A program made the translations under genes and the position numbers. Under the pieces are notes generated by a model, which was given only the letters and a program-made list of their open reading frames with translations, was not told the origin of the DNA and made no database searches. DNA of 64,000 nt from Nitrospirae bacterium GWF2_44_13 (GTDB lineage Bacteria > Nitrospirota > Thermodesulfovibrionia > Thermodesulfovibrionales > UBA1546), in the NCBI GenBank assembly GCA_001805105.1, contig MHEE01000012.1, positions 171,127 to 235,126 on the forward strand, read 5' to 3'. Within the stretch, counting starts at the first letter, position 1; every line of letters starts with the position of its first letter. Shown here piece after piece: positions 28,755 to 61,294 of this stretch.

Positions 28755-30176
28755 TTATTGATTATGAATTTCCTTGCACGCATTTATACTGGGGTGGCTC
28801 CAATACAATTTACAAACTCCAAAACTCAAACCAAGCATAAACCATAAAGATGGGATAACAACAAAACTACTTGCTAATCTAAAAAATAACATTGCGATTA
28901 AAGTAGCAGAAAGAAGCTGAATGATATTGTCAGTTTCCAAAGAACTCTTTATAATTCTTATTTGCTCCACAACTACAAGAGCTATAAGGCACAGTAAAGA
29001 AATTACGCCTATTATCCCTACATTAAAAAATTCTGTAAGGAACAAATTATGGGCGTCAAGCAGGCTTTTATTAATTTCTTCACCATCTACCCCAAATTTT
29101 TCCATAAATTTCATAGTTTTTCTGTCAAGAGTTTTTTCAAAATTATTAGCCATTTGTGGCAATAATTTTTGTGAAAGCCCGGCTCCGTTTCCAACCCAAA
29201 AGACTTCCATGGAATTAATGGAACTACTGAGGCTCACTATAACAGCCTTTGCTCTAATCATAAATGAATGTTTACCAATAGGGGAAAATATATTCAGTCT
29301 ATCTTTTATATCCGGCCTACCTTCTATTCCAGTTAAATTTGAATGATTAGCAATATTTGGGAATCTGTTAATTAAAAAACTTTTTATATCACTCTGATTA
29401 TTCACAAAAATCGTAAGTACTATAAATAAAATTAAAGTTTTTACTATAAAAAATCCGTGTTTTTTAAAAACGAAGAATAAATAAATTAAAAATAAAACTA
29501 CAGAAACTATTAGGGCTTTTGTGTATGTGAGTATTATAGCAGAGAACCATAATATCAACAAAAGCCACTTCACCTATTTCCAAGATTTTTTATCAAAAAA
29601 GTTGAGGATTACATAAAAAACAGGGCCTATAGAATACAACATTAAATCTCCAAAATAAGGCGCATCTCCACCCAAATATATCAACCCTAAATTACCATTA
29701 TTATTTCCTAATCGAGCGCCATGTTCAGTGAAAAAAACATAATACCCAAACCCCAATATACCGATAACTAACGACACTATACCCATTGTAATCAATAGCA
29801 ATATAGCTGTTTCTTTAGTCGCTATGCTCTCAGAAATAATAACCATCATAAGCAGTAAACAAGAAACGATCACTGCTTGCTTTAATGATTCTTCAGGCAT
29901 AGGAGAATTAAGGAGCGATGCAAATTGCGAAATGCCATAAATAAAAGCAAAAGTGTAAACTAATTTTTCTTTTAAGCATCTTTTTCTTTCAAACTTAATG
30001 AATCTAAGAAACCAAGCAACAACAAGTAACATAAAAGTTATCATTGTTATTTTTATCTCAAACCGGCTGACAGAAAACAAATCCCATTCGATTGCATGAA
30101 ACGGCAATGAAATAACGAATAATATAAGTGATATATTTATGAAATTATTTTGTTTTGATTCGCCAATTAATTTCAT
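28755..30176 (-). pseudogene. O-antigen ligase/polymerase-like (Wzy_C) membrane protein interrupted by a single in-frame TAG (29574-29576)
   Basis: Track ORFs 29574..30176 (200 aa) and 28755..29573 (272 aa, GTG start, no SD) are contiguous and in the same frame: ...TGG AAA TAG GTG AAG TGG... The N-part is polytopic. The C-part carries WVGNGAGLS...LDAHNLFLTEFFNVGIIG, the WaaL/PglL-type H-x-H/A-N...E.G motif region. Confidence 0.55.
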
Positions 30177-31642
30177 GCCGGGTTTCTCCTACGAGGATAT
30201 ATATAATAAAGCACTACAGAAAAAGGTAAGATATTCATTACTACAATATTAAGCCATGGGAACCCGCCATAAAAAAAATTCCGTGATTGACCGAGAATAA
30301 ATATGTATAACATTACAACACCTGCGTTATAACTATTCTTTCTAAAAATATTATAAACAATTCTAATCAGAGCGCCAAAAACAGCAAATCCGATTATCAC
30401 ACCGGGTAGTCCAAAATCTGAGTAGAATTGACCATGTAAGCCAACAGCATAGCCTGAAAAAAAGAAGTCCGGATTAATATCATAAAGTGCAACTCTAGCT
30501 CCATATACAAAAGGTTTTCCTTCCCATAAAGCTCTTGGAATTAATAAAATAAACATCTCCTCAAATAATCTCTGTCCGAAATAATAAGCATTATGGGAAA
30601 AATGGGATATAATCATGCATAAGCGCTCAAATGACTCAAAACTCTGCATATAAATGAGAATATGAGAAAAACTCAAAGGAAAGGCGGCTTGAGGAGTTCT
30701 GAGAGAAGTAAACGTTATCATGATAAATATACCAATGGACAATAAAATAAAAAGTTCAGTAAATCTTACTTTCCTCCTAGTATAGTGCAAAAAAGCAAAT
30801 AGAAAAAAAGCGATGAAGATTGGTCCGCTTTTTGATGTTGTGATAATACCATTAGTAATTGTATAGGCTATATAAAGCAATATAAATATATTTGCACAAC
30901 GGATAAGCGCTTTGTTTTTTGGGTTATCTCTTGGAAGCATAAAACATGTAAAAAAAATGTAACTAAAGAAGGATTCAAAAAATAAGAGAACTGTAGTATA
31001 CCCCCTAATGCTATCTTCTCTCCGTATAAACTCACTGCCATAACTTTTAAACCCAATTATTTCCGATAGGCTTGCATGCATAAGATAGGATTTAATGATA
31101 GCAATTACTAAAAGAGCAACAACTGATATAAAAACATAGGATATGATTCTTCTTGTGGATGGCTCTGTACCAAATGGAAGACTAACATTAACCCCTATTT
31201 TTTGTGCTAATTTATAACCGAAACATAGCGCATATAAAGCAAAGATTGAAATCCAGACAGCATATTCAAAAGAAGACATATCCCAATAATTATATTTTAT
31301 TATACCTGCTCCCGGTATGAATAAAATGGCAAAAATAGGCATTACAAAGAATGGAAAATATAAACAGAGAATAATATTTATAAAGGAAAAAAAATCGCCT
31401 TCACTTTCATTCCAAAAAATTGCAATAAACAATAATATTGACAAAATTAAAACTGCAGCATTAATAAGTATTCTTTCATGAATTGTTAATAAATTCATTA
31501 TTGTCACTATAGAACTAAGAAGCAGGGAAACAAATACGAAGATAGACAAGATTAATAGAGTAGTTGACAATCTGTTGTCCATAGGATGCACGTTTGATAA
31601 TAATTTCACTATGGACTTAGATATCGGCTTAGATGAACTCAT
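30173..31642 (-). CDS. Polytopic membrane protein, oligosaccharide repeat-unit polymerase (Wzy)-like
   Basis: 489 aa, more than 10 predicted hydrophobic helices, very AT-rich. ATGA overlap with the downstream ORF. No soluble-domain motifs. Confidence 0.4.
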   Translation of the reverse strand: MSSSKPISKSIVKLLSNVHPMDNRLSTTLLILSIFVFVSLLLSSIVTIMNLLTIHERILINAAVLILSILLFIAIFWNESEGDFFSFINIILCLYFPFFVMPIFAILFIPGAGIIKYNYWDMSSFEYAVWISIFALYALCFGYKLAQKIGVNVSLPFGTEPSTRRIISYVFISVVALLVIAIIKSYLMHASLSEIIGFKSYGSEFIRREDSIRGYTTVLLFFESFFSYIFFTCFMLPRDNPKNKALIRCANIFILLYIAYTITNGIITTSKSGPIFIAFFLFAFLHYTRRKVRFTELFILLSIGIFIMITFTSLRTPQAAFPLSFSHILIYMQSFESFERLCMIISHFSHNAYYFGQRLFEEMFILLIPRALWEGKPFVYGARVALYDINPDFFFSGYAVGLHGQFYSDFGLPGVIIGFAVFGALIRIVYNIFRKNSYNAGVVMLYIFILGQSRNFFYGGFPWLNIVVMNILPFSVVLYYIYPRRRNPA

Positions 31643-31644: not shown

Positions 31645-33405
31645 CTATTTTGTTTTCAGATTAATTCTTTTCTGATAATTAGCCTTTGCATTCTCTACCT
31701 CTGCATTTGTAACATTAATGCCGGGTGGAATTTCAAAGGGTTGAGGATATGGCAAAGCGTCAGATTTGCGCTTATACAAAAAAATGCCTTCTTCTGAAGC
31801 AACAAGTTCAAACACATCCTGACGTCTCTCTATCCAGTCATAATAAAACTGCGGATACTGCCTTAAGCCATCCCAAGACCCCGGAATACTTCCAGTCCCG
31901 GTTTTAATAGGATTTTGCTTATCAATAAAAATATATTCTGCTCCATCTATCCATGGAAATATATATATTGACTTGCTTTTATACACATCCTGCAATAAAA
32001 ATTGTTCCGCAGATATCGAGACGTTCTCGGGAATTAATTTTGCAACTTTCCGTATTATTTCATCATGAGATGTCGGTTGATATCTGGTTATATTAAAAGT
32101 GTTTGTGCGAAAGGGGGCAAGGGAGAAATCTTTATTCCAAAACTGAATAGAAAAGGGAGAGGGGCCAAAATAGACAGCGCTTGCTAGGCTGCCGCAAAGT
32201 ACCGCAAATGCTGCCCGCTCTTTTGTAATCCTGAACTTAAGCCGCAGAAATGCCATAAATCGAGGGTGTTTATCAGAGAAGGCTGCAACATTATTAACCC
32301 CCTCAACGGCAGCCCAAACAACTGCGACAAGGATTGGAGATACATAGTAAAGGAAATACGAACTATGTGTAACAGAGCTGCTGAAAGCAAGGAAGATTGC
32401 TGATGGAAGCGCTATTACAAGAACTTTGAAACCAAAAACCGGCACAAAAGAAAAAGGCAATAGATACATGAAATAATTAATACTTTTGTGTGGATGAAAA
32501 AGATGCGCAATTAGCTTGATCGGATGAAGCAGCACGTTTTTAATTATTTCAACCGGGGCGCTTCCGAACTCAGAAAAAGACCCGGCAGCCACATTCACAC
32601 TCCCGCCATCTCCTCTAAATGCCGGCATTATGACTTTAAGGACGGCTATCAGATATATGAGGGAAAGCGCCATAATACCGGAACCGAGCGCCCTCTTTTC
32701 TTGAAAAACAGCGATATAAAACCCTATTCCAAAAACAAAGAATGCCGTATCCTCCCGAACCAGAAGAGAAAGGGCGCAACATGCCAACACCGCCCATATA
32801 TTCGCATCTTTCTGCATTGCAACGCCCAGCGTTAACATACCAATGGGAATGATAAATCTCAAAAAATCAAACTCATACAGGGTTATGTATTGAAATGTTG
32901 GGTTTAATAATAATGCTAATGAAATACAAAAAGCGCTAAAATCACCTATCTTCGGTTTTGCAAAAAGATATAAAATTATTACTGAGGAGGCAAGGAGAAT
33001 TGTCTGAGCCCAATTTATAGTATGAAAAGAGGGGAAAAGCTTGAATAAAAAACCGAAAACATAGGCAATCGGGGTAAAATGAGTTGAAAGCCAATTGCCG
33101 GTTCCAGACACAAAATTCTCTTGCATTGAAAGAAACAATCCTTTCCCATTGGCAAAATTATTAAATATTTCAAGATAACCGGCAAAATCAACATAGCTGT
33201 GATGAGAAAGCACTGTGAAGTCTTTCATTGCAGAAAAGATGATCACATAAAGAATGCTTGACAGCGCAACAATTGAGAAAAATGACTTTCTTTTGCTGAC
33301 ACTTTCAAACAATGGAAGTTTATTGAAAACAATAAACCCCGCGGTTGTTACGATTAGCACGATTATTATTCCAATAAAATATATAAGCGAATATTTAAGC
33401 ATCAT
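31645..33405 (-). CDS. Large polytopic membrane protein, DUF2079/GT-C-like
   Basis: 586 aa. N-terminal loop HSYVDFAGYLEIFNNFANGKGLFLSM...WLSTHFTPIAYVF resembles the DUF2079 signature (D.g.f.q......G......lg.Hf.p). C-terminal ~150-aa soluble domain. Confidence 0.45.
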   Translation of the reverse strand: MMLKYSLIYFIGIIIVLIVTTAGFIVFNKLPLFESVSKRKSFFSIVALSSILYVIIFSAMKDFTVLSHHSYVDFAGYLEIFNNFANGKGLFLSMQENFVSGTGNWLSTHFTPIAYVFGFLFKLFPSFHTINWAQTILLASSVIILYLFAKPKIGDFSAFCISLALLLNPTFQYITLYEFDFLRFIIPIGMLTLGVAMQKDANIWAVLACCALSLLVREDTAFFVFGIGFYIAVFQEKRALGSGIMALSLIYLIAVLKVIMPAFRGDGGSVNVAAGSFSEFGSAPVEIIKNVLLHPIKLIAHLFHPHKSINYFMYLLPFSFVPVFGFKVLVIALPSAIFLAFSSSVTHSSYFLYYVSPILVAVVWAAVEGVNNVAAFSDKHPRFMAFLRLKFRITKERAAFAVLCGSLASAVYFGPSPFSIQFWNKDFSLAPFRTNTFNITRYQPTSHDEIIRKVAKLIPENVSISAEQFLLQDVYKSKSIYIFPWIDGAEYIFIDKQNPIKTGTGSIPGSWDGLRQYPQFYYDWIERRQDVFELVASEEGIFLYKRKSDALPYPQPFEIPPGINVTNAEVENAKANYQKRINLKTK

Positions 33406-33410
33406 TTCGA

Positions 33411-34838
33411 CTAATGAGCAGGCTTGGCTCTCACCATTTTCACAAATGAAATAAAGTCATTGAAAAGCAGAGGGATAAACTTTGGCTTCTCAAGCAGGAG
33501 TTTTGCATATTTAGCTATTATGCGCGGCCTTAAATAAAACTTCCTAAATGCTTCATTCCTTTTTTTTATAAGATAACTTTTGGTCAGTGCGTGGGGAACA
33601 AATACAATATTCCACATGTTCATGTGTTCCCAATCATCATCAAATTCGCCGGTTGTTTTTGCTATTTCATGTACTTCAGAGCCTGGAAATGGAGTAAGAA
33701 ATGTTATTTGGAAATCAGAGAGCGGAAGTGAAAGAGCAAAATCAATAGTCCTCTGTACTGTGTCCTGCGTCTCGTTTGGGAATCCAATAATAAAATACCC
33801 CTTTGATCTGATTCCGGCAGCTTCAGTCCATGCGACAGTTCTCCTCACCTGTTCCATGCTAATGTTTTTATTGACCTGTTTTAGAATTTCCGGCGCTCCA
33901 CTTTCGACCCCATACGCAATCTGGAAACAACCTGCATCTCGCATCATCTCAAGGGATTCCTGTGTCATCATATCAACTCTCGAGGAGCAACTCCACGGAA
34001 TTGAACTAAATCGCGCCTTAAGGCCTGAGCATATAGATCGAAGACGTTTCTTATCGTAGGCAAAAGTGTCATCATTGAATATCAAACTCTTGATGTTATG
34101 ATTCTCTACCAACTGGCCGATCATGTTAAGGACGTATTCCGCACTATGCCCACGAATTCTCCGGCCAAAAACACTGACGTCACAAAAAGTACACTTTCCA
34201 AAACATCCCCGCGAGGTAATAAGGCTTGCTGTCGGCTGATCCTGAAAGCGGGTAGCGGAAAGCTTATACAGCTCGAATGGCAGCAAAAGATCCCATGCAG
34301 GTAAAGGCAAGGTATCAAGGTTTTGTATAAATCCCCTGCTTTCGGTTTTAATCAACTGCCGGCCATTTCTAAAAATAATTCCGGCGACTTTACTTAAAGA
34401 GGCGTTATTCGAAAGCGCGTCAAGGAGATCAATCAAGGTTTCCTCTCCTTCTCCTAAGACTCCGACATCAAAAGAATCATACCTTTTCATTGTCATCTCA
34501 GGCACGGCAGATATATGAGGACCGCCCAAGATAACTTTAACGCTTGAATTAGCCGCTTTCAGGTGCATAGCCAGTCTGCTTGCGGAAGCAATCGCCATCG
34601 TTGCAGCAGATATTCCCACGAATGCAGGATTAAGTGAGAGCACTTCATTCACAATCCTATCAAATGGCCTTTCCGGGCATGAAGCATCAATCAAAAAGGT
34701 CTCATAGCCAGCCTTTTTACAGATGGCGCTAAGATAAAGCAGACCTATTGGCGGCATGTTTGCCCCACCTTTTCCAAGAGAGCCGTAACGCTCCTCAAGG
34801 GTTAGCGGTGGTGATATAAAAACAATCCTCTCTCTCAT
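33411..34838 (-). CDS. B12-binding-domain radical SAM enzyme
   Basis: Trimmed to ATG 34838 by alignment with its paralogue (MRERIVFISPP vs MYSKKIVFIEPS). ILGGPHIS, VLGEGEETLIDLL, ITSRGCFGKCTFC. Confidence 0.8.
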   Translation of the reverse strand: MRERIVFISPPLTLEERYGSLGKGGANMPPIGLLYLSAICKKAGYETFLIDASCPERPFDRIVNEVLSLNPAFVGISAATMAIASASRLAMHLKAANSSVKVILGGPHISAVPEMTMKRYDSFDVGVLGEGEETLIDLLDALSNNASLSKVAGIIFRNGRQLIKTESRGFIQNLDTLPLPAWDLLLPFELYKLSATRFQDQPTASLITSRGCFGKCTFCDVSVFGRRIRGHSAEYVLNMIGQLVENHNIKSLIFNDDTFAYDKKRLRSICSGLKARFSSIPWSCSSRVDMMTQESLEMMRDAGCFQIAYGVESGAPEILKQVNKNISMEQVRRTVAWTEAAGIRSKGYFIIGFPNETQDTVQRTIDFALSLPLSDFQITFLTPFPGSEVHEIAKTTGEFDDDWEHMNMWNIVFVPHALTKSYLIKKRNEAFRKFYLRPRIIAKYAKLLLEKPKFIPLLFNDFISFVKMVRAKPAH

Positions 34839-34916
34839 ACTATAGAACCTACATTTCGGGAGACGCACATGTGGGCATAAAGGCGCACCTTCTGCATGTT
34901 CATTGCAAAATCATTT

Positions 34917-36335
34917 CTAATGATTATTGCCTTTGAGTACATATTGACCGAGCATATAAGCCCCTCGCAAAGCAATTATGGGATTTTTTACCATTTTTAA
35001 ATACGACAATACTGGCCGGGGCCGAAAAAAGAATTTGCGCATTGCTCTTTTCTGGTTCTCAATCAGTTGTTTTTTTGTTAGGCATCGAGGAATAAAAACC
35101 GGTGAGAACAAATTCATCCCCTCCCATTCATTCTCAAACGCCCCGTATTCATCTGCCATAAGCGAGGCTTTTGTGCCTGGCAGGGGGGTGAAAAAAGTCA
35201 TCCTGAAGTCATCCAACCCGCAATTACACGCAAATTCTATTGTTTCATCAATAGTCTCTTGGGTTTCACCAAAGTGGCCGATCATAAAAAAGCCAACTGT
35301 TCTGATTCCCGCACTGCGGGCCATATCAATAGCCCTGCATACTTTCTCTTTGGTGATATTTTTGCCAAGTAAATCCATGATCCTCTGATTGCCGGTTTCA
35401 ATGCCATAGGATATCTGCCAACATCCGGCTTTTGCCATAAGATTAAGCATCTCCTGATTTACCATATCAACTCGTGCATTGCAGGACCACGTCAAATCAA
35501 GCTTCTTTTCTATCAACATATTGAGCAGTTTTTTCAAATTCTCCCTAAACGTGACAAAATTATCATCAAAAAGCATAAATTCCCGAATGTCATATCTTTC
35601 CTTAAGATGTTTCAGCATATTTATTATGTATTCTGCAGAGTATGTCGAAATTGTCTTGTGGCAGCCGCTATAGCAAAAGATGCATTTGCCAGGGCAGCCC
35701 CTCGAAGTAAGTATGGGGGTTGCCGGTGTGCGGTGCGCTGCAAATAGAGGGGTTTTATAAATATATGGAAAGCCCTCGAGAATATCCCAAGCGTACAGAG
35801 GAAGATCGTCTAATTTTATTTTTTCTCCTCGCTGCCCGGTATTTATAAGCTGGCTATGCTCCCGGCTTATAGTGCCTTTAACAGTACTTGCTGCATTCCC
35901 TTTATTTACTGTATCGAGTAACTCCGGCAAAGAATAATCTGCTTCACCTATAAATCCTATATCGATATCGGGAAAACGAAGCATTGTCTCTTCAGGAACT
36001 GATGAAATATGCGCTCCACCCAAGAGAATAATTGCTTCCGGCACTGCGGCTTTTATAGCCTTTGCAAGTTTACCAGCCTGCATGATATGAGGCGTCATTG
36101 CAGTCAAGCCTACAAATCGTGGGTTGATCTTCTTAAGTCTGCCAATAACATCTCCATAAGTCAGTCCAAGAGCTGGACAATCAATAATGTGGGGGGCATA
36201 GCCTCTCTCACGAACAATAGCAGCTAAGAGAAGCAAATTAAGAGGCGGTGAGACTGCTCCGACCTTTGCTAAACCTCCATAAATTTCCTCTAATGCCACG
36301 GAGGGTTCTATGAAAACAATTTTTTTAGAATACAC
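34917..36335 (-). CDS. B12-binding-domain radical SAM enzyme, paralogue of 33411..34838
   Basis: LLGGAHIS, FIGEADYSLPELL, LTSRGCPGKCIFC. C-terminal ends are similar (FRKFYLRPR / MRKFFFRPR). Confidence 0.8.
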   Translation of the reverse strand: MYSKKIVFIEPSVALEEIYGGLAKVGAVSPPLNLLLLAAIVRERGYAPHIIDCPALGLTYGDVIGRLKKINPRFVGLTAMTPHIMQAGKLAKAIKAAVPEAIILLGGAHISSVPEETMLRFPDIDIGFIGEADYSLPELLDTVNKGNAASTVKGTISREHSQLINTGQRGEKIKLDDLPLYAWDILEGFPYIYKTPLFAAHRTPATPILTSRGCPGKCIFCYSGCHKTISTYSAEYIINMLKHLKERYDIREFMLFDDNFVTFRENLKKLLNMLIEKKLDLTWSCNARVDMVNQEMLNLMAKAGCWQISYGIETGNQRIMDLLGKNITKEKVCRAIDMARSAGIRTVGFFMIGHFGETQETIDETIEFACNCGLDDFRMTFFTPLPGTKASLMADEYGAFENEWEGMNLFSPVFIPRCLTKKQLIENQKRAMRKFFFRPRPVLSYLKMVKNPIIALRGAYMLGQYVLKGNNH

Positions 36336-36337
36336 TG

Positions 36338-37078
36338 CTATTTTATCCTTTTCAGTCGTAAAAGCATTAAGAGGGTTCTTTTTATTGTCTTTATAACTTC
36401 CATCTTGCTTTCTCCTTCTTTTTGATCATATCTGAGAATGAGGGGAACTTCTACCGCAAGAATATCCATGCTTCTCAACTTTATTAGCAGTTCTGCCATG
36501 CATGCAAACCCTTTCTCCTCTATGAGCCTATCTTTAAACTTCTCATGGGCATTCCTCAAACATTCAAGACTATAAGCACGGTAACCACAGGTGTAATCCT
36601 TAACGCCCTTAATTGGGAAAAGTATTCTCATCATCCACGAGGCGCCTATGCTAAGTATCTGTCTGAGTTTTGTCACACCGATTATCCTGCTATCCCCGAG
36701 ATATCTGGATGCAATAGCAACATCAAAGCCGTCTCTTATTTTATTTACCATCTGATAAATATGCTCCGGATTGTGTGTATTATCAGAATCAAGGACAATA
36801 GCGATATCTTCTTCGTTAAATGAAAGCTTAAGCACTTCTCTGATAAGGCTAAAAAAGGCAAATCCCAATCCTTCATTCTGGTCCTTCCCTATAATTTTGA
36901 GTGGAATACCATATTTATTCTGCTTTAGAATATCAAGCGTATTGTCTGTGCTGCCATCATTGTAAGCAATTACTTGATAATCAAAACTATGACTCTCCAT
37001 CTCTGTTTTAATACGCTTTAGAAGGGGCTCAAGCGCCTTCCCCTCATTATAGGCAGGCAGTAGAATATAGATTATCAA
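36338..37078 (-). CDS. GT2 polyprenyl-phosphate glycosyltransferase, DPM1/Ppm1-like (soluble type)
   Basis: MIIYILLPAYNEGKAL, YNDGSTDNT, VLDSDNTHNPE (compare DPM1 DADxxHxP), VAIASRY, VKDYTCGYRAY. Confidence 0.75.
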   Translation of the reverse strand: MIIYILLPAYNEGKALEPLLKRIKTEMESHSFDYQVIAYNDGSTDNTLDILKQNKYGIPLKIIGKDQNEGLGFAFFSLIREVLKLSFNEEDIAIVLDSDNTHNPEHIYQMVNKIRDGFDVAIASRYLGDSRIIGVTKLRQILSIGASWMMRILFPIKGVKDYTCGYRAYSLECLRNAHEKFKDRLIEEKGFACMAELLIKLRSMDILAVEVPLILRYDQKEGESKMEVIKTIKRTLLMLLRLKRIK

Positions 37079-37092
37079 ATTATTATCTCAAT

Positions 37093-38529
37093 TTAATTCG
37101 TAGGACTTAGGAATCTTCGGAAATAACCAACGCCAAAACTCATCAGGCGCAAGAACTCTGCGGGTCTGAGCGCCCGTTTGAAGAGAATCCAAGCATACGC
37201 CGGACGCAGGTAGAATTTACGGTATGCTTTTCTAATAATCTTATCCAATTTCTCTTTTTTCACTCCTGGAATTTCAATAACAAATTGACTTCCACCAGTC
37301 ATATAGTTGTCCCAATTGACATCCACGACTAAATTTTTGGCTCTAACTATGTCAAAAAATTCTGTTCCAGGATATGGTGTTGCAGGATAAAACTCTACGT
37401 AGTCCGGGTTAATTTGCTTTGCAAAATCCACTGTCTCTTGAATTGTCTCTCGGGTCTCTCCAGGCAGCCCTATGAGAAAATAAACAAGAGAACTAATTCC
37501 GACTTTTCTAAGAAGTTTAACGGTATCCTTAATATGTTCAGGCTTCGTCCCTTTTTTTATCATTTTAAGAATTTGGGCATTGCCGCTCTCACCTCCGATG
37601 GAGAGCATAAAGCAACCGGCATCTCTCATGAGCTGGAACATCTCTTCGTCCCGCTTATCTACACGGGTATTGGTCCACCACGTAATCTTAATTTTACGCT
37701 CAATTATTGCCTTGCATAGTTTTTTTACATATTCAGGCGAGCATGTAAAATCATCAGCATGCATCCAGACATGACGAATACCGAATTTGCCTATAACATG
37801 ATTCTCCAACTCATCTATAACACTTGCTATAGAGCGAAAACGGACTTTTTTGCCATAGTAGAGATGTCCAACACAAAAAATACAATTATGAACGCATCCC
37901 CTTGAAGCACTTACCATCACATAAGGCTTATTAAAAATGGGATGAAAATATCTTGATTTATCAAAATGTTCCCAGGCCGGGAACCCAAGCGAATCCAGAT
38001 CGGAATTATACTCTCTATCTGCTGAAACAATGACTTTTCCATTAACCCGCATGGTGCATCCATGTATTCCTTCATCCGGAATTCTCCCATCTTGAAGAGC
38101 TGAAATCAATTCCTGGCTGGTCCATTCGGGTTCATGGCGTATCACACAGTCAATAAATGAATTTTTATTCATAATCTCTTGATGGAGAGCAGTTACATGG
38201 GTTCCAAAAACCACGGTAAAACAACCCTGATAGCGTTTCTTGAATGTTTCAACAAATAATAAATCAGCATTTATTGAAGGTGTTACAGTATTAATAAATG
38301 CCGCTTCAGGTTGAAACTCATCCATATCCATAAACAAATCTTCATTAGTTATTCCTGAGGCAATACAGTCATAAACCTTCAGGGTGTGACCACCGCGGCC
38401 ATGGATTCCGGCCAAATAAGCCAGTGTCATCTGTGGTATAGAGGTCTTGCGCATATTTTGAGAAGACTGGCAGCGCCCTTCACGAATAATTGATATATGA
38501 TAAGGAGGATTGAGTATCAAGATTTTCAT
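37093..38529 (-). CDS. B12-binding-domain-like radical SAM enzyme
   Basis: MKILILNPPYH..., VFGTHVT, SASRGCVHNCIFC. Confidence 0.75.
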   Translation of the reverse strand: MKILILNPPYHISIIREGRCQSSQNMRKTSIPQMTLAYLAGIHGRGGHTLKVYDCIASGITNEDLFMDMDEFQPEAAFINTVTPSINADLLFVETFKKRYQGCFTVVFGTHVTALHQEIMNKNSFIDCVIRHEPEWTSQELISALQDGRIPDEGIHGCTMRVNGKVIVSADREYNSDLDSLGFPAWEHFDKSRYFHPIFNKPYVMVSASRGCVHNCIFCVGHLYYGKKVRFRSIASVIDELENHVIGKFGIRHVWMHADDFTCSPEYVKKLCKAIIERKIKITWWTNTRVDKRDEEMFQLMRDAGCFMLSIGGESGNAQILKMIKKGTKPEHIKDTVKLLRKVGISSLVYFLIGLPGETRETIQETVDFAKQINPDYVEFYPATPYPGTEFFDIVRAKNLVVDVNWDNYMTGGSQFVIEIPGVKKEKLDKIIRKAYRKFYLRPAYAWILFKRALRPAEFLRLMSFGVGYFRRFLSPTN

Positions 38530-38537
38530 AAAAGGTT

Positions 38538-40031
38538 TTAATCGATAGAAAGGAAAAATTGTTTAAACTTTCTTATTAAAAACATTTCAGGAACAGACTT
38601 AAATGCGTTAAGCCGCCAACGGATTAAAAACCAGAATCTTATAGGCAAATATAATATTTTAGCGAGTTTAGGCAGAGCCTGATAAAACAAATCGGATATA
38701 AGGTATGAGATAGTAACGATATTTTCGTAAAATTGATACTCTTTTTTGTCAACTTTGCCCTTCTTGAGGTTAAGATGATGGAAAGTTGTCCACTCATAGA
38801 TAGTCTTTGGGACTTCATCAGGGTAATCCTGTCTATAAACGTCGAATAAAGCGGTTCCCGGGTAAGGAGTAAAGTTATTAATATTTGCAAGTTGGGCATT
38901 AGGATTTTCTTGCTTGAGTTTTTTCATCATATTAACTGTTGCAAGCGCATCTTCCCTCTTTTCCCGTGGAAATCCGATCATAAAGTTGTACGCAGGAGTA
39001 AGATTCAGATTTTTACACTCACGATTAACTTCATATATATCCTTTGTCGTAATCCCTTTTTTAATAAAAGAGAGAATTTTTTCTGAGCCTGATTCAACCC
39101 CAAATCGAAGTATTGCGCCTATCTTTTTTAAATCTTGACGTGCTTCATTTGGAAGGCGTTTGAATTCTTGTATAGTGATACCGGGAAGATAAACTTTTAA
39201 CTTCTGCCGGCACAGATATTCAATGATTGCAGCAGCTCTGGGTATGTTAACAAAAAAATTATCGTCTCGAATCCAAATAGACCTTAGCTTGTATTTCTCA
39301 GTGTTGTATTGTATCATTTCTATTGTTTTTTCCTTACTCATTGAACGCCATTTACGGCCGAAAAAGGCTGCATTGTAACAATACGCACATTCCCAACAAC
39401 AACCCCTGCTTGTTTCTCCCAAATCTAACTCCCGGTCCGAAAGTAAAGAGGCTTTCTTAAAAATATATTTCTCCGCATCGACAAGGCCGAAACGGTCAAT
39501 CGGAAAGGTATCCATATTGATTAAGGGGCGTTTAGGCGTTCTCACTATTTGTTTCCCATTCTTAAAGATTAGTCCCGGTACCGACATAAGAATATCCATT
39601 TTATTTTCATTAAGTGCGTTAACTAATTCGAGGATAGTTTCTTCCCCTTCTCCAATTACACCAAAATCAATTAATTCACACTGAATGCTCTGTTCCGGCA
39701 CAAGGGAGACATGGACGCCGCCAAAAACAATTGGAGTCGCAGGAGAATGTTCTCTTATAAAATTGGCGATATTAAGGGCATTTTTAAGTTGAACCCCTGT
39801 CATGGAGGAAATTCCAATCAATAATGGTTCTTGCTTCAGTTCCTCTCTTATGACATTTTCCCAGTTTTTCTCAATTCTCTGGTCAATGATAATGATACGA
39901 TTTTTTATTTTATGGTGGACCAAATAAGCGCCCACCGCTAAAATGCTATGAGGTGGAGTAATTCCAACCCCGATATCATAACCAGTATTTGGATAGATTA
40001 AAATTACACTCCGATATCGAGAGTATGCCAT
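38538..40031 (-). CDS. B12-binding-domain radical SAM enzyme
   Basis: VFGGVHVS, VIGEGEETILELV, ETSRGCCWECAYC. Confidence 0.8.
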   Translation of the reverse strand: MAYSRYRSVILIYPNTGYDIGVGITPPHSILAVGAYLVHHKIKNRIIIIDQRIEKNWENVIREELKQEPLLIGISSMTGVQLKNALNIANFIREHSPATPIVFGGVHVSLVPEQSIQCELIDFGVIGEGEETILELVNALNENKMDILMSVPGLIFKNGKQIVRTPKRPLINMDTFPIDRFGLVDAEKYIFKKASLLSDRELDLGETSRGCCWECAYCYNAAFFGRKWRSMSKEKTIEMIQYNTEKYKLRSIWIRDDNFFVNIPRAAAIIEYLCRQKLKVYLPGITIQEFKRLPNEARQDLKKIGAILRFGVESGSEKILSFIKKGITTKDIYEVNRECKNLNLTPAYNFMIGFPREKREDALATVNMMKKLKQENPNAQLANINNFTPYPGTALFDVYRQDYPDEVPKTIYEWTTFHHLNLKKGKVDKKEYQFYENIVTISYLISDLFYQALPKLAKILYLPIRFWFLIRWRLNAFKSVPEMFLIRKFKQFFLSID

Positions 40032-40037: not shown

Positions 40038-40184
40038 TTACTCCATAAAAAAGGCTAAAAATATCCCTGCAAAAAGGCTTATAACCCCTGCAAGGATAAT
40101 ATTTTTCTTTATATTAGGACTCACAGACATTTTGGGAATATATGGTTTATCTATGTCCTGCTCGACAAATTCGGAACAATTCAT
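40038..40184 (-). CDS. Possible 48-aa small membrane protein (below the ORF-track size cutoff)
   Basis: Hand translation: MNCSEFVEQDIDKPYIPKMSVSPNIKKNIILAGVISLFAGIFLAFFME. One C-terminal TM helix. The stop is 6 nt before the next ATG. No convincing SD. Confidence 0.2.
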   Translation of the reverse strand: MNCSEFVEQDIDKPYIPKMSVSPNIKKNIILAGVISLFAGIFLAFFME

Positions 40185-40197: not shown

Positions 40198-40320
40198 TTA
40201 GTCCCACCATGTTTTCAAGTTTATAATAATTAGTTGAGACATTATATCCCAGCGCCTCATGCGGCCTATATATGACCCAATAAGACCTACTACTCCTGTC
40301 AATATTATCATCTTCCCCAT
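40198..40320 (-). pseudogene. Possible remnant of the N-terminus of an NAD-dependent epimerase/dehydratase gene
   Basis: Hand translation: MGKMIILTGVVGLIGSYIGRMRRWDIMSQLIIINLKTWWD*. ILTGxxGxIGS is the SDR Rossmann motif. The ATG overlaps the ugd stop (TGATG). The ORF stops after 40 codons. Confidence 0.25.
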
Positions 40321-41648
40321 CATTCACCAACACCTATCTGAAAGTATTCAAATCCTATTTCGTTAAGTTTTTCTTTATTATACTGATTTCTTCCGTCAAA
40401 AATTATTTTATTTTTCAGACGCCTTGCAATCTCATCAAAGTCAGGGCTCCTGAACTCCTTCCACTCCGTAACAAGCAGCAAGGCATCAGCGCCTGACAAT
40501 GCAGTATATTTGGAATCAGCATACTCTACGTTTTTTAAGTCCTTGAGATAGTACGCCTTGGCAACATCCATTGCTCTGGGGTCATACGCCTTTATCTTTG
40601 CTCCATGCTTTGTAAGTTCCCGAATTATAGCTATACTTGACGCCTCTCTTGTGTCGTCTGTCTCAGGCTTGAAGGACAACCCCCAAACAGCAAATACATG
40701 CCCATTTAAATCCTCACCGAACCTTTTTATAACCTTACGGACCAGGACTAATTTCTGAGATTCATTTATTTCCTGAACCGCCCTGAGCATCCTGGCCGCA
40801 TATTTATTTTCTGTAGCTAATCTTTCCAGCGCCCTTACATCCTTAGGGAAACAGCTTCCACCGTATCCGCAGCCAGGATATATAAAGCTGTATCCTATTC
40901 TGCTGTCGCTTCCTATCCCTACCCTAACCTTATTAACATCAGCCCCTACTCTCTCGCAGATATTGGCTATTTCATTTATAAAAGATACCTTTGCGGCAAG
41001 CATCGCATTTGCGGCATATTTTGTCATCTCAGCGCTTCTTACATCCATAGAAATAAACCTTTCGTGGCTCCTTGTAAATGGCGCATAAAGTTCTTTTATC
41101 TTCTCAAGCGCCTTTGGATTATCCGCCCCTGCGATAACCCTGTCCGGCCTCATAAAATCTTCGACAGCAGCCCCTTCTTTAAGGAATTCAGGATTGGACA
41201 CAACATCAAACGGTATTTCAAGTTTCCTTTTATTCAGTTCACTTTTTACGACATCTCTAACCTTATCCGCTGTTCCTACAGGCACGGTTGACTTATTAAC
41301 GATGATAATATGGTGTGTCATATTTTTGCCTATATCACTGGCTGCCTGCAAAACATGCTGCAAATCAGCGCTCCCGTCTTCTCCCATCGGAGTGCCGACT
41401 GCAATACAGCATATCTCGCTGTTGTCAATTGCCTCTTTAATGTCAGTCGTAAACCTTAATGTCCCCGCCCTGTAATTTTCAGCGACCAGAGGTTCAAGCC
41501 CGGGCTCGTAGATGGGGATAACACCGCGTTTAAGGTTGTCTATTTTTTTTCTGTCAACATCCACACAAAAAACGCTGTTTCCCATCTGCGCCATGCATGC
41601 GCCTGTGACGAGCCCTACATATCCTGTGCCTATAATTGAAATTCTCAT
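40320..41648 (-). CDS. ugd: UDP-glucose 6-dehydrogenase
   Basis: MRISIIGTGYVGLVTGACMAQMGNSVFCVDVDRKKIDNLKRGVIPIYEPGLEPLV, GGSCFPKDV (catalytic Cys), 442 aa. Confidence 0.9.
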   Translation of the reverse strand: MRISIIGTGYVGLVTGACMAQMGNSVFCVDVDRKKIDNLKRGVIPIYEPGLEPLVAENYRAGTLRFTTDIKEAIDNSEICCIAVGTPMGEDGSADLQHVLQAASDIGKNMTHHIIIVNKSTVPVGTADKVRDVVKSELNKRKLEIPFDVVSNPEFLKEGAAVEDFMRPDRVIAGADNPKALEKIKELYAPFTRSHERFISMDVRSAEMTKYAANAMLAAKVSFINEIANICERVGADVNKVRVGIGSDSRIGYSFIYPGCGYGGSCFPKDVRALERLATENKYAARMLRAVQEINESQKLVLVRKVIKRFGEDLNGHVFAVWGLSFKPETDDTREASSIAIIRELTKHGAKIKAYDPRAMDVAKAYYLKDLKNVEYADSKYTALSGADALLLVTEWKEFRSPDFDEIARRLKNKIIFDGRNQYNKEKLNEIGFEYFQIGVGE

Positions 41649-50231: not shown

Positions 50232-51809
50232 TTATAATGCATCAGATGAATCCATTGTTTTATACATTAAAGCAATAGGCTCATTCTGGAATGATATAAT
50301 ACTTTCTAATCTATAGCCCAAGCTTTTGGCATAATTGGAATCGTTAAGCATACGCATCCATATCATATCCTTATATGGGACATACATCTTTCCGGATAAT
50401 ATCACATATGAAGGCTTCAACGTTTGGCTTATTGTTTTAAGCGTATCAAGATCATACGGAAGCCATATAGCCTTTCTATCAGCATACCATGCCAGTTCCC
50501 ACGGCATATCTGTCAAGATAAGAGTATCTTTTTCCGTCAATTTCTCAACCTGTTTACCCATTGATATGAACGGATTTATCGGTTTGGGACTTTTCCAGTA
50601 CGGCATTGCAGTAAAAGCAAAGGCTATCAGCCCGAATGACAATACAATCGGGCTGTATTTTTTTAAAAGATCATCAACGTTAATCACGGAAACAATCATC
50701 ATTATTGGAAAAAAGAACATGTAATAATACGGCACAGGCCCCATCGGAAGGAGTAAAGCAGTCTGCACAATAATTCCCACGATAGTAATAATCCTCAACA
50801 TGCGCACCCGGGAATTTTTTAAAGGCATAAAAAATGTTACTCCTGTCAGCAATAAGACAACAGGGGTGTAAAAATCCACCGAGTTCTCTAAAAGCCTCCA
50901 AAACCACTGATAGCTCTTTGATATCATCTCCCCGGGATGGCTCATGACGAACATGATGGGGTTAATATCGCTTATTTGTGTCCATACTGAATAAGTCGGG
51001 AAGCTTTTTGTGAACAACAAAAAACTATAGCCATACAATGAAAAGAAAGGATTCCCAATGATACTGTAGTTTCTGACAAGATGCGGCGTGATTCCTATCA
51101 TGAAACCAATTGACAGTTTTCCTGCATCAAGAAATCTTTCTCTTAGATTTTGTTTTCCGTGAAAAATATACATCAGGAAAAAAGCGATAAAGACAAACTG
51201 GGTATTTGCCCTCACGAGTTGTAAGAGACCGAGCATAATTCCGTAAATCAGGGGTCTGCATGGATATTTGATATAGAAATAAAAAAAAGCGACATAAAGC
51301 GACGAATACATAATATTGGGCTCAGCCTGCAGGCTGTGGTCAAGAAAGCACTTCATGCACGAAACCAGCAATGCGGCTATTAGGCTTATAACCGTATTTT
51401 TGGAAAGCTCATATGCAAGGAAATAAACTAAAATAATCAGAGCAACAAAAAAAACACCATTTAAAAAAACAACAGTAAAGTCTGACTGACCAAATATTTT
51501 AAAGGATAATCCTAAGATGTAAGGGTAACCTATCATTCGGGTGATTTCAGGCTGAGGAAGGGTTTTAAAAAAACGGTATGCAAGGGGCCTCAATACAGAT
51601 GTGGAATAACCATTCCCTTCATTAACATTTTTTGCCAGTTGAGCATAATCATGGCTGTCATTTATGACAAAACCATTAAAATGCAAGGCATAGTTTGCAT
51701 ACCATATTGCAACAGCAATTAAAAAAACAAGGATTAAGCCTAATTTAAAGGATAATCTAATTGAATATTCTAAATTTTCTTTTTGAAGATTCTCTTGACT
51801 CTGTTCCAT
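50232..51809 (-). CDS. GT-C-type polytopic glycosyltransferase (ArnT/PMT_2-like)
   Basis: Start set to ATG 51809 (AAGGA upstream); the track start at 51899 would overlap the upstream gene by 130 nt. First periplasmic loop INDSHDYAQLAKNVNEGNGYSTSVLRPL is typical of ArnT/GT39-83-type enzymes. About 12 TM helices plus a C-terminal soluble domain. Confidence 0.55.
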   Translation of the reverse strand: MEQSQENLQKENLEYSIRLSFKLGLILVFLIAVAIWYANYALHFNGFVINDSHDYAQLAKNVNEGNGYSTSVLRPLAYRFFKTLPQPEITRMIGYPYILGLSFKIFGQSDFTVVFLNGVFFVALIILVYFLAYELSKNTVISLIAALLVSCMKCFLDHSLQAEPNIMYSSLYVAFFYFYIKYPCRPLIYGIMLGLLQLVRANTQFVFIAFFLMYIFHGKQNLRERFLDAGKLSIGFMIGITPHLVRNYSIIGNPFFSLYGYSFLLFTKSFPTYSVWTQISDINPIMFVMSHPGEMISKSYQWFWRLLENSVDFYTPVVLLLTGVTFFMPLKNSRVRMLRIITIVGIIVQTALLLPMGPVPYYYMFFFPIMMIVSVINVDDLLKKYSPIVLSFGLIAFAFTAMPYWKSPKPINPFISMGKQVEKLTEKDTLILTDMPWELAWYADRKAIWLPYDLDTLKTISQTLKPSYVILSGKMYVPYKDMIWMRMLNDSNYAKSLGYRLESIISFQNEPIALMYKTMDSSDAL

Positions 51810-53296
51810 AACATCCTTGCCGTAACATTTATAAATCGGAAAGCTAAATAGAAGAAAGCCCTGCCCATTTTTAAAATCTCGCCAATGGATAAATACCATT
51901 TGCTGGAAAGTTTTATAACATTGCCGCCTGCTACTGATTGTGTAAATAACAGCTTTAATCCACTGAAGCTTAGGTAATAGGATAAGTTAGCCCACATCGT
52001 ATCGAAAATGAGTTCAATCCTGTCGTTTCCCTCAGGAACGTAGGGAATATCGTCGCTTTCCCACATGTATTGAACTCCGAAGTTCTCCCAATTCCCTTTG
52101 ATAAGGATTTTACCTTCAGGCGCGAGCATATTATAGACAGGGGTTCCAGGATATGGAGCAAGGGTATTAAAACGGACTGATGACAATGGAAGAGATTTTA
52201 CTAATTTCATCGCACCCCATCGGTCTCTCCTTGTCTCTGTCGGCAGCCCGAAAATTATTGTAGTTCCGACAGCAATACCTTTTCCGGCTGCCCTTTCTAT
52301 CGCTTCAATAACTTCTCTGACCGTTTCTCCCTTATTAATAACTTTCATAAGTCTTTCGCTGCTTGTCTCGAGGCCATAATAAATAATCCTGAAGTTGGCT
52401 TCTGCAGCCTTATCAAGTATCTCGTCCGTGGCATTATCTCCGCGCATTGAACCATGAAAAAATGCCTTTTTATATAAACCTTCACTGATAATTGCGTCAC
52501 AAAGCTCTATGAAGTGTTTCTTGTTAACAGAAATATTATCGTCCATAAGAAAAACCGATTTCTGTCTATATTTATTAATTAAAGTGGAGCATTCAGAAAT
52601 TACTCTATCAACAGAATGAAAACGATATTTTCGTCCTGAAATGCTCCTCGCAGAACAGAATGTGCAGCCATAAGGGCATCCTCTTGAGCCGAACACCCCG
52701 GAAAAGTTTGGATATTTATCAAGATGCTTTTCAAATAAATGATACGGAAATGGAGGGATATCATCAAGATTCTCAATTAAAGGCCTGCTGGGGTTGTGAA
52801 CAGGGCTGCCATTATTATTGTAGGAGATTCCAAGTATATGCCTAAAGTCTTTTCCGTTAAGTATCAAAGCAATAAGTTCTTTTACAGTCTCTTCCCCTTC
52901 TCCTCTTACAACAACATCAACGCCTTTTCTGAACAGCACTTCTTCAGGAACGACTGTGGGATGTATCCCGCCAAAGACAATTTTTGATTTGGGGTCAAGC
53001 ATCTTAACCTTCTCTGCTAATTCATAAGCCCTGCCGCTGTTTAAGGTCAAAACACTCAGGCCGATAACCCGAGGTTTGCGTAGAGCATATATTGTTTCAA
53101 ATAATAGATTATCGTTAAGAGGGGTTACTTGTTCATCAATGATATTCACATGTTCAATACCTGATGCCATTAAATAGCCGGCAAGGACACCAATGCTTGT
53201 GGGGAACGAAATATTTATAAGGGCGTTAATCCTCTTGTTTTGAGAATAGTCGCTTATTTTAGGATTGATTAATAAGATATTTGTCTCCAATATCAC
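51770..53296 (-). CDS. B12-binding-domain radical SAM enzyme
   Basis: VFGGIHPT, VRGEGEETVKELI, VFGSRGCPYGCTFC. 4-nt overlap with the upstream GT2. Confidence 0.8.
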   Translation of the reverse strand: MILETNILLINPKISDYSQNKRINALINISFPTSIGVLAGYLMASGIEHVNIIDEQVTPLNDNLLFETIYALRKPRVIGLSVLTLNSGRAYELAEKVKMLDPKSKIVFGGIHPTVVPEEVLFRKGVDVVVRGEGEETVKELIALILNGKDFRHILGISYNNNGSPVHNPSRPLIENLDDIPPFPYHLFEKHLDKYPNFSGVFGSRGCPYGCTFCSARSISGRKYRFHSVDRVISECSTLINKYRQKSVFLMDDNISVNKKHFIELCDAIISEGLYKKAFFHGSMRGDNATDEILDKAAEANFRIIYYGLETSSERLMKVINKGETVREVIEAIERAAGKGIAVGTTIIFGLPTETRRDRWGAMKLVKSLPLSSVRFNTLAPYPGTPVYNMLAPEGKILIKGNWENFGVQYMWESDDIPYVPEGNDRIELIFDTMWANLSYYLSFSGLKLLFTQSVAGGNVIKLSSKWYLSIGEILKMGRAFFYLAFRFINVTARMLWNRVKRIFKKKI

Positions 53297-54243: not shown

Positions 54244-54693
54244 TTATAAGTTTTGTTTTTCGTTTTTCCATTTTTCTATTTCACTTTCAATATTCCGTAC
54301 TATTCTGCCTGGGACGCCTGCTACAAGGGAATATGGCGGTATTACAGTTCCTTCCGTAATCACGGTCCCTGCCGCAATAATACTATGATGACCTATATGA
54401 ACACCTATTAGTATAGTTGAATGCTCTCCAATAAAAACATAGTCTTCTACGACAGTCTCAGATTTTTCAACTTCGTTGTATTCTCTTTCTGTCACGCAAC
54501 GCTTTACAGTTGAATGAGTGATTATATGGACGCCGCAGCTTATATTACAGCATCTACCAATTCTTAATCCTCCTATACCATCAATAACAGTAAAAGCCCC
54601 AATCCACGTTCCTTCCCCAATCTCAGGATTATTTATAATCCATGCATGGGGATTATATTTGTTAGGAGAAATTCCATGCTCATCAAATGTCAT
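54244..54693 (-). CDS. Left-handed beta-helix (hexapeptide) acyl/acetyltransferase
   Basis: Start set to ATG 54693 (ATGA overlap with the upstream stop). Hexapeptide repeats IGEGTWIGAFTVIDG..., IGEHSTILIGVHIGHHSIIAAGTVI. Confidence 0.7.
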   Translation of the reverse strand: MTFDEHGISPNKYNPHAWIINNPEIGEGTWIGAFTVIDGIGGLRIGRCCNISCGVHIITHSTVKRCVTEREYNEVEKSETVVEDYVFIGEHSTILIGVHIGHHSIIAAGTVITEGTVIPPYSLVAGVPGRIVRNIESEIEKWKNEKQNL

Positions 54694-56818: not shown

Positions 56819-56821
56819 ATT

Positions 56822-61244: not shown

Positions 61245-61294
61245 TGCCTGATGGCTTTAATCGACAATATCCCTTTATACTAACCTTTTTTCTT

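Follow-up and report, generated by a model that had tools for sequence, protein, structure and literature searches.

The question raised by this locus is on what kind of substrate its radical S-adenosylmethionine (rSAM) enzymes act. In a stretch of 64,000 nt from the Nitrospirae bacterium GWF2_44_13 (GenBank assembly GCA_001805105.1, contig MHEE01000012.1, positions 171,127 to 235,126; this whole stretch is called the window, and its own positions are used below), genes for rSAM proteins with cobalamin (B12)-type domains surround a gene for a short glycosyltransferase of family 2 (GT2) and adjoin a gene for a polytopic protein with a predicted glycosyltransferase C (GT-C) fold. The scheme by which polyprenyl-phosphate monosaccharides serve periplasmic glycosylation is well understood; to our knowledge, only a small number of tailoring reactions on the lipid-linked sugar are known, namely the deformylation by ArnD and the epimerisations by DprE1/E2 and ORF13. 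The region is read here as a set of Gtr/Arn-like periplasmic glycosylation modules with built-in rSAM tailoring enzymes, a reading to which we give a probability of about one half. The results suggest a Gtr/Arn-type system with rSAM tailoring enzymes that is widespread in uncultured anaerobes and in which radical chemistry would be performed on lipid-linked sugars.

Glycosyltransferases of the modules

Module 1 consists of six minus-strand genes in the order rSAM_i (497 aa, 38538..40031), rSAM_h (478 aa, 37093..38529), GT2_246 (246 aa, 36338..37078), rSAM_g (472 aa, 34917..36335), rSAM_f (485 aa, 33411..34868) and a DUF2079 gene (586 aa, 31645..33405), separated by 8, 14, 2, 48 and 5 bp, respectively. 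All open reading frames (ORFs) that an initial annotation of the sequence had placed between 31645 and 40031 were recovered there, on the minus strand. The GT2 gene had been described as flanked on either side by a pair of B12-type rSAM genes; the gene order was as described, but the B12-binding domain of rSAM_h scored below the Pfam threshold, and only rSAM_h and rSAM_g proved to be conserved partners of the GT2, upstream and downstream, respectively.

GT2_246 (Pfam Glycos_transf_2, 70.9 bits) resembled polyprenyl-phosphate sugar synthases in sequence and in fold. When a profile of 13 family members was compared with the PDB, the best match was the dolichyl-phosphate mannose synthase (DPMS) of Pyrococcus (5mlz, E 1.9e-32, residues 2-243), followed by GtrB and ArnC. 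An AF2 model (pLDDT 88.5) showed a GT-A fold with a D-x-D metal/nucleotide motif (D97-S-D99, invariant), and in a Foldseek search ranks 1-25 were all occupied by DPMS, ArnC or GtrB, while GT2 enzymes with soluble acceptors, such as glucosyl-3-phosphoglycerate synthase (GpgS), appeared from rank 26 onward. Within the motif DSDNTHNPE, residues D97, D99, H102, N103, P104 and E105 were invariant in the 13 homologues. NCBIfam gave only weak matches, to PpgS or to a haloarchaeal dolichyl-phosphate hexose transferase (26-40 bits). GT2_246 has no transmembrane (TM) helix and so lacks the TM anchor of polyprenyl-phosphate GT2 enzymes; its C-terminus forms a basic amphipathic helix (residues 228-245). 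Polyprenyl-phosphate synthases without TM helices exist, for example DPM1 and PpgS. Human DPM1, domain 2 of mycobacterial Ppm1 and PpgS share with GT2_246 a catalytic domain of about 240 aa without TM helices, the D-x-D...P-E motif and a C-terminal amphipathic helix, but no partner anchoring subunit was identified for GT2_246. By sequence and predicted fold the protein is probably a short synthase of the DPMS/PpgS type, and its acceptor would be polyprenyl phosphate.

The DUF2079 protein (152 bits) had been called GT-C-like, and this was borne out. The gene lies 5 bp from rSAM_f, and a model built from 31 homologues (AF2 pLDDT 93.7, at least 8 TM segments) matched GT-C enzymes only, in all 17 Foldseek matches to the PDB with E<=1e-3. 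The first match was ArnT with bound undecaprenyl phosphate, followed by STT3/AglB, ALG9/ALG12, AftA and DPY19. Profile comparison with PMT_2 proteins by hhalign gave a probability of 83.5%. Four residues, D73, H109, E218 and D495, were invariant in the 31 homologues, and D73, which aligned with a conserved D of the PMT_2 alignment, may correspond to the acidic residue that GT-C enzymes conserve near the start of the first extracytoplasmic loop. The model thus points to a GT-C-fold glycosyltransferase, presumably a user of lipid-linked sugar. Because the DUF2079 model matches GT-C enzymes and the profile matches PMT_2, the pairing of GT2 and GT-C is real for module 1, as it is for module 2.

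Three further polytopic ORFs (28755..31642, minus strand) follow the DUF2079 gene in the same operon, with gaps of 2, -4 and 0 bp. One encodes a polymerase-like protein of 489 aa with 11 TM helices (TIGR04370, 37 bits against a cut-off of 40). The other two, of 200 and 272 aa, abut without a gap (28755-30176; Wzy_C, 18 bits) and look like a split Wzy_C/O-antigen-ligase-like protein. The split was common to all six near-identical contigs. The window matches contigs of Rifle groundwater metagenomes and the Nitrospirota genome bin GCA_001803715.1.

Module 2 repeats the combination of GT2, rSAM and GT-C at 50232-54228, as had been proposed. It comprises, on the minus strand, GT2_311 (311 aa, 53293..54228; ArnC/PgfS/GtrB type), the B12-domain protein rSAM_j (51770..53296; Pfam) and a GT-C membrane protein of the PMT_2 family (50232..51899; PMT_2 38.3 bits, 7 TM segments). 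GT2_311 matched PgfS (227 bits) and ArnC (188 bits) over its full length and carries two C-terminal TM helices in the region 226-285; its ArnC score is below the equivalog cut-off of 529 bits, although the match is full-length and the two-TM architecture is the same. Upstream lies a block of NDP-amino-sugar genes that would supply module 2 (54244..60322, minus strand) and which by Pfam encodes a GNAT protein, a GFO oxidoreductase, a hexapeptide acyltransferase, a DegT protein, a short-chain dehydrogenase/reductase (SDR), a second DegT protein and a second hexapeptide acyltransferase. The soluble sugar enzymes of module 2 are all encoded upstream of the GT2, and rSAM_j stands between the GT2 and the polytopic protein. 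The longest ORFs of PMT_2 and rSAM_j overlap by 130 nt (51770-51899), and the true PMT_2 start is probably more downstream.

A third pair had been described as a GT2 with a membrane protein containing tetratricopeptide repeats (TPR), extending from 60315 to 63150. Both genes were present, without an rSAM gene (60315..62809, minus strand): GT2_309 (309 aa), an ArnC/PgfS-like protein (NCBIfam PgfS 270 bits, ArnC 236 bits) with C-terminal TM helices, and a protein of 504 aa with 9 TM helices and one TPR repeat (61295-62809). The latter ORF ends at 62809 rather than at 63150, and its GT-C homology was not detected, with no Pfam GT-C hit and an hhalign probability to PMT_2 of 3.5%. The proximity of GT2_246 to DPMS, ArnC and GtrB in both sequence and fold, together with the PgfS and ArnC matches of GT2_311 and GT2_309, supports the view that the GT2 proteins are of the polyprenyl-phosphate type rather than conventional processive enzymes. 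Likewise in agreement with the initial annotation, no Pfam family of the initiating transferases WecA, WbaP or PglC or of Wzx was found among the window ORFs of at least 120 aa.

Conservation of the modules in other lineages

Relatives of GT2_246 with 54-66% identity were found in other lineages. In every long contig examined, from seven other lineages, an orthologue of rSAM_h (567-812 bits) lay directly upstream of the GT2 gene, and an orthologue of rSAM_g (518-756 bits) lay directly downstream in Magnetobacterium, another member of the Nitrospirota, Syntrophales, Riflebacteria and Geobacter (among them loci L011-L015). The genes of the Magnetobacterium triad overlap by 4 and 8 nt; in Riflebacteria a gap of 25 nt is followed by an overlap of 4 nt. 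In Omnitrophota and in an anammox bacterium rSAM_h and the GT2 are retained, the next gene differs, and a DUF2079 gene or two PMT_2 genes follow downstream. Where rSAM_g is missing, a class I methyltransferase gene often adjoins the GT2, which is a weak hint compatible with a methylation theme. The smallest arrangement, locus L007 of Magnetobacterium, has four genes and no other sugar enzyme. In other phyla a UDP-GlcNAc 2-epimerase gene adjoins rSAM_h. A membrane protein family of about 750 aa with about 12 TM helices, termed A3 (L007:12377-15184, L008:6086-8380, L015:5233-7569 and L013:5380-7581), occurs together with the rSAM_h-GT2-rSAM_g triad in Magnetobacterium, Riflebacteria, Geobacter and Syntrophales and may be a new GT-C-like family. 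Orthologues of rSAM_i were restricted to close relatives (L091-L093). As neither rSAM_i nor rSAM_f had a strong orthologue among the matches in other phyla, the two genes were apparently added in this lineage.

In a collection with one genome per species, a B12-domain rSAM gene was found at most two genes away from the GT2 in 7 of 9 close GT2 relatives, against 3 of 56 distant ones (39-51% identity). Genes of polytopic proteins made up 22% of the neighbouring genes of these distant relatives, compared with 6.7% of far genes. Because the distant relatives mostly adjoin polytopic proteins and the close ones B12-rSAM proteins, the broader family is one of short GT2 enzymes paired with a GT-C-like protein, one branch of which, mostly from anaerobes, has acquired rSAM_h and rSAM_g as partners.

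The neighbourhood was also examined reciprocally, by a metagenome scan seeded with an rSAM_h profile. A GT2 homologue occurred within three genes at 14 of the 15 rSAM_h orthologue loci with enough context, and in nearly all of these it was of the GT2_246 type and lay immediately downstream of rSAM_h. Even for relatives with 33-40% identity to rSAM_h, 28 of 32 loci had a GT2, GT-C or GtrA gene within three genes; Pfam families in these distant loci included GtrA_DPMS_TM (91-93 bits), PMT_2, PTPS_related and GT2. One complete related operon contained, in order, genes for a GT-C protein, a GT2, a B12-rSAM protein, a class I methyltransferase, GtrA and a second B12-rSAM protein. GtrA homologues were confined to the vicinity of the rSAM genes (12 of 318 near genes, 0 of 188 far genes, the far genes being an internal control only). 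In another operon (L124:840-5681), genes for a B12-rSAM protein, a class I methyltransferase, a CDP-alcohol phosphatidyltransferase, GtrA and a second B12-rSAM protein were found. As a phospholipid head-group enzyme here replaces the usual GT2, some of the rSAM relatives may work on a different lipid-linked substrate.

Homologues of rSAM_j were found in the same block in Clostridiales, Deltaproteobacteria, Magnetococcales and Omnitrophica. The conserved block encodes a GFO oxidoreductase, DegT aminotransferases, an SDR, hexapeptide acyltransferases or a formyltransferase, a GT2 of 312-321 aa, rSAM_j and a protein with 9-12 TM helices, which in Magnetococcales is PMT_2. The order GT2, rSAM_j, polytopic protein is kept in three lineages (L171, L172 and L174), with the GT2 gene immediately upstream of rSAM_j, while the Magnetococcales locus (L173) is rearranged and has PMT_2 in that position. 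The NDP-amino-sugar block is syntenic in L172, L173 and L174. Several rSAM_j homologues of about 870 aa are fused to a C-terminal domain resembling polysaccharide deacetylases (NodB/DUF2334), namely P0316 (L174:6001-8601), P0301, P0302, P0304, P0324, P0336 and P0337. ArnD is a deacetylase-family enzyme of the same superfamily as this domain and acts on a lipid-linked sugar.

By analogy, module 2 follows the logic of the Arn pathway (Ugd, ArnA, ArnB, ArnC, ArnD, ArnT), with rSAM_j apparently standing at the position of ArnD. Module 2 likewise has an SDR, a DegT aminotransferase, an N-acyltransferase, an ArnC-like two-TM GT2 and a GT-C protein; its relative L171 has a formyltransferase, and the best fold match of the module 1 DUF2079 protein is ArnT. 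In contrast to the Arn pathway, Pfam scans of the window revealed no deacetylase family of the type of the ArnD deformylase, a B12-rSAM gene occupying that position, and for module 2 a multi-acetamido sugar seems more likely than Ara4N.

The initial annotation had made its proposal depend on the adjacency of GT2, rSAM and GT-C genes being conserved in related loci, and for both modules this adjacency is kept across phyla. The lineages concerned, mostly anaerobic, include Nitrospirota, Desulfobacterota-type lineages, Omnitrophota, Planctomycetota (anammox), Riflebacteria and others.

Radical SAM proteins and their possible substrate

Eleven of the approximately 57 genes of the window encode rSAM proteins, ten with a B12 domain and one of the HemN type; all eleven have the CxxxCxxC motif (CCWECAYC in rSAM_i), and Radical_SAM Pfam scores ranged from 52 to 101 bits. 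The B12-binding domain (PF02310) was above threshold in rSAM_i, rSAM_g, rSAM_f and rSAM_j. In rSAM_h the Radical_SAM score was high (101 bits), but the N-terminal B12-type domain is degenerate, with 26.4 bits against a threshold of 32.1, although most rSAM_h homologues carry a precomputed PF02310 hit. AprD4 has the domain yet binds no cobalamin (PMC12931638). Since the domain of rSAM_h is below threshold and AprD4 is its closest solved relative, cobalamin use by rSAM_h is uncertain. The proteins rSAM_f and rSAM_g are paralogues (41% identity, 355 bits), while rSAM_h and rSAM_i are each distinct. A second rSAM island, missed by the initial annotation, lies at 1071-14005, where genes for five B12-domain rSAM proteins and the HemN-type protein neighbour those of soluble sugar enzymes; a NUDIX protein, an SDR and two Glyco_trans_1_2 proteins are encoded beside the island. 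At 370 bits the HemN-type protein exceeds the hemN equivalog cut-off of 325 and would be a coproporphyrinogen-oxidase-like enzyme, which is odd within a glycan locus.

Among characterised families, HpnJ gave the best scores for rSAM_h, rSAM_f and rSAM_g (231, 212 and 168 bits), far under its NCBIfam cut-off of 577.6; the best match of rSAM_i was BchE (124 bits), also far under the cut-off. Membership in HpnJ, BchE or any other curated rSAM family was rejected, since none of the ten B12-rSAM proteins reached an NCBIfam cut-off. The closest solved structures by sequence were AprD4 (6fd2; best match of rSAM_h, E 1.6e-37, and of rSAM_g) and QCMT (9ccb, E 1.2e-24), which was second for rSAM_g. AprD4, the rSAM 1,2-diol dehydratase of apramycin biosynthesis, QCMT and TokK share with the proteins studied here a Rossmann-like N-terminal domain and an rSAM barrel, and the substrate of AprD4 is a sugar. 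That substrate is, however, a soluble aminoglycoside, while QCMT methylates a protein and TokK a carbapenem, and none of the three is linked to polyprenyl-phosphate glycosylation.

The following course of events would be consistent with these data. At the cytoplasmic membrane face, GT2_246 would load polyprenyl phosphate with a sugar taken from a nucleotide sugar. Because a UDP-glucose 6-dehydrogenase-like gene (40320..41648, minus strand; TuaD 521 bits, NDP-sugar dehydrogenase subfamily 465 bits) lies directly upstream of module 1, a UDP-GlcA-derived sugar is the candidate donor in this genome; a UDP-ManNAc-derived sugar is the candidate in other phyla, because of the 2-epimerase beside rSAM_h. 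The enzymes rSAM_h and rSAM_g, here joined by rSAM_f and rSAM_i, would then modify the sugar by radical chemistry, most likely while it is tethered to the lipid and with the anomeric phosphate left intact. Ring contraction in the manner of HpnJ is unlikely, because the product still has to serve as a glycosyl donor; more plausible reactions would be C-methylation, deoxygenation or dehydration, and epimerisation. The product would be flipped across the membrane, and the DUF2079 protein would pass the sugar to a periplasmic acceptor, either a pilin or a polymer for which the neighbouring Wzy-like proteins would be responsible. Module 2 might operate by the same logic, as an Arn-like amino-sugar pathway in which rSAM_j replaces ArnD. 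More generally, a widespread HpnJ/AprD4-like clade of B12-domain rSAM proteins, mainly in anaerobes, might tailor polyprenyl-phosphate-bound monosaccharides as a fourth component of Gtr/Arn systems, a generalisation that we put forward tentatively, at somewhat less than even odds.

Both elements of such a scheme have precedents. Tailoring at the polyprenyl-phosphate-sugar stage is performed by DprE1/E2 and by the ORF13 epimerase (PMC11127046), and genetic data indicate rSAM action on lipid-linked sugars for HpnJ, a B12-domain rSAM protein acting on lipid-linked glucosamine, and for Cds, acting on a lipid-linked hexose (PMC13459092). The statement of the initial annotation that lipid-linked sugars are not a known substrate class of class B rSAM enzymes was thus too broad in view of HpnJ and Cds, but holds in a narrower form, since polyprenyl-phosphate sugars seem not to have been described as such substrates. 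In the HpnI/HpnK/HpnJ pathway (hopanoid cyclitol ether) and with Cds (calditol synthase), a glycosyltransferase loads the lipid and the rSAM enzyme then remodels the sugar, a logic like that of the modules. However, rSAM_h differs from HpnJ in its score (231 against 577), and here the sugar would sit on a polyprenyl phosphate carrier and, once modified, would still be a glycosyl donor; Pfam and NCBIfam scans of the window detected no hopanoid genes. The GtrA/GtrB/GtrC-type systems, including the pentofuranose systems of Kelly et al. 2024 (PMC11127046), show the same pairing of a GT2 synthase with a GT-C protein; related rSAM loci also carry the GtrA flippase, and DprE1/E2 and ORF13 tailor lipid-linked sugars in such systems. 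They differ in that tailoring is assigned here to between one and four B12-domain rSAM proteins, in related loci often accompanied by a class I methyltransferase, that the window has no GtrA, and that GT2_246 lacks the TM helices of GtrB. Outside subscription-only papers, no published description was found of an association of rSAM genes with polyprenyl, GtrA, GT-C, three-component systems or DUF2079, and 2026 reviews of B12-rSAM enzymes and of lipid-modifying rSAM enzymes do not mention polyprenyl, undecaprenyl or dolichyl substrates.

Alternatively, the rSAM enzymes might modify the nucleotide sugar before it is loaded by the GT2, the lipid route serving only for the extracytoplasmic addition of an unusual sugar. 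The closest solved relative, AprD4, which modifies a sugar, acts on a soluble substrate, as do the C-methylating B12-rSAM enzymes GenK, GenD1 and Fom3, whose sugar substrates are soluble or nucleotide-tagged. At many module 1 loci rSAM_h directly follows the UDP-GlcNAc 2-epimerase gene and precedes that of the GT2, and the five further B12-rSAM proteins of the window adjoin soluble NDP-sugar enzymes, so the organism may use rSAM enzymes at the nucleotide-sugar stage. Several other observations weigh against lipid-linked tailoring. The evidence for action on a lipid-linked sugar rather than on an NDP-sugar comes here only from gene context, and the neighbourhood statistics use the internal near-versus-far comparison as their sole control. 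No GtrA-type flippase was found in the window with a custom GtrA hidden Markov model run on 386 stop-to-stop segments, and for family A3 no match in Pfam, to PDB sequences or by hhalign to PMT_2 supported a GT-C assignment. The rSAM proteins have no TM helices, and a check for amphipathic helices, suggested by the initial annotation as a sign of membrane association, was negative: the C-terminal tails of rSAM_h, rSAM_i, rSAM_j and rSAM_f are basic/aromatic, but their hydrophobic moments did not exceed those of soluble control proteins. The lipid-linked stage is nevertheless favoured, because the association of the rSAM clade with lipid-carrier machinery is far closer than an enzyme acting on nucleotide sugars would require, because rSAM_j follows the GT2 and all soluble enzymes in the window and in three lineages, because the deacetylase fusion of rSAM_j mirrors ArnD, and because both kinds of precedent exist. 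Modification of the nucleotide sugar, which we consider less likely, leaves unexplained the near-exclusive tie of the clade to GT2, GtrA and GT-C genes, even at 33-40% identity, the placement and fusion of rSAM_j, and minimal loci such as L007 that have no other sugar enzyme.

Three further explanations are improbable. The target might be the lipid itself, whether the polyprenyl carrier, another membrane lipid or a head group: B12-rSAM enzymes methylate hopanoids and archaeal lipids, and HpnP/HpnR are lipid methylases (PMC13459092); in L124 a CDP-alcohol phosphatidyltransferase gene stands together with rSAM, methyltransferase and GtrA genes; and weak NCBIfam matches (89-125 bits) pointed to a 'lipid biosynthesis B12-binding/radical SAM' family. 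The carrier pool is, however, common to essential pathways, the closest characterised families, HpnJ and AprD4, act on sugar rings, and the 2-epimerase, the UDP-glucose dehydrogenase and the amino-sugar block co-vary with the rSAM set, all of which leave this explanation little credit. Slightly less credit still is due to the proposal that the rSAM enzymes modify a protein or peptide, such as the pilins of the locus or a ribosomally synthesised and post-translationally modified peptide (RiPP), and are merely co-located with glycosylation genes. It draws on two PilA-like genes in the cluster, on weak matches to RiPP C-methyltransferase families (84-113 bits) and on small ORFs upstream of rSAM_i, but pilins are missing from the conserved modules in other phyla, where the conserved partner is the GT2. 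Finally, the adjacency might have arisen by chance in a glycan locus with an exceptional number of rSAM genes, and at a density of 11 among about 57 genes adjacency alone proves little. Chance is contradicted by the conservation of the triads in other phyla and the recurrence of both in several lineages, some in otherwise unrelated surroundings.

If action on polyprenyl-phosphate sugars is correct, it would be the first radical SAM chemistry on such substrates, a new substrate class for class B-type rSAM enzymes, and a new source of unusual cell-surface sugars (C-methyl, deoxy), with C-modified sugars delivered only outside the cytoplasm. The module may shape the envelopes of many uncultured anaerobes, and it gives a testable context to hundreds of unannotated 'BchE-like' or 'YgiQ-like' rSAM genes; the four-gene Magnetobacterium locus is of a size suited to heterologous expression.

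Other features of the window

With about 57 genes, nearly all on the minus strand, the window forms a single very large glycan biosynthesis locus. Its sugar genes comprise a dTDP-rhamnose-type set, several DegT aminotransferases, SDR epimerases/dehydratases and acyltransferases, and it further holds a NusG paralogue of the UpxY family, two PilA-like pilins and the three polyprenyl-phosphate-type GT2 genes. A promoter and terminator scan of the region 28-43 kb gave counts no higher than those of shuffled sequence.

Between the UDP-glucose dehydrogenase gene and rSAM_i, two small ORFs at 40038-40323 are apparent gene remnants. The first (48 aa) resembles the C-terminal TM end of a Wzz-type chain-length regulator and the second (41 aa) the GxxGxxG start of a Rossmann-fold enzyme; a reading of these ORFs as RiPP precursors was rejected in favour of such Wzz-like and Rossmann remnants.

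In the middle of the locus (41761-42884), the NusG paralogue passes the cut-off of the UpxY antiterminator family (128 against 100 bits) and adjoins a helix-turn-helix protein gene. UpxY is best known from capsule loci of Bacteroides, whereas the present genome belongs to the Nitrospirota. A thiamine-diphosphate E1 alpha/beta-like gene pair among the sugar SDR genes (20964-22735) hints at a two-carbon branched-chain sugar; such sugars are made by enzymes of the YerE or AviB1/B2 type. Within the sugar locus, the region 17145-21090 further encodes a protein that resembles galactarate/altronate dehydratase but, at 300 bits, falls short of the equivalog cut-off, a GDP-fucose-synthase-like protein of 575 aa that is much extended at its C-terminus, and a DJ-1/PfpI protein.

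The two PilA-like type IV pilin genes are located at 47481-47975 and 63212-63745, one of them directly upstream of the genes for the TPR protein and GT2_309. By analogy with pilin arabinosylation of the TfpW type, both pilins may be targets of periplasmic glycosylation.

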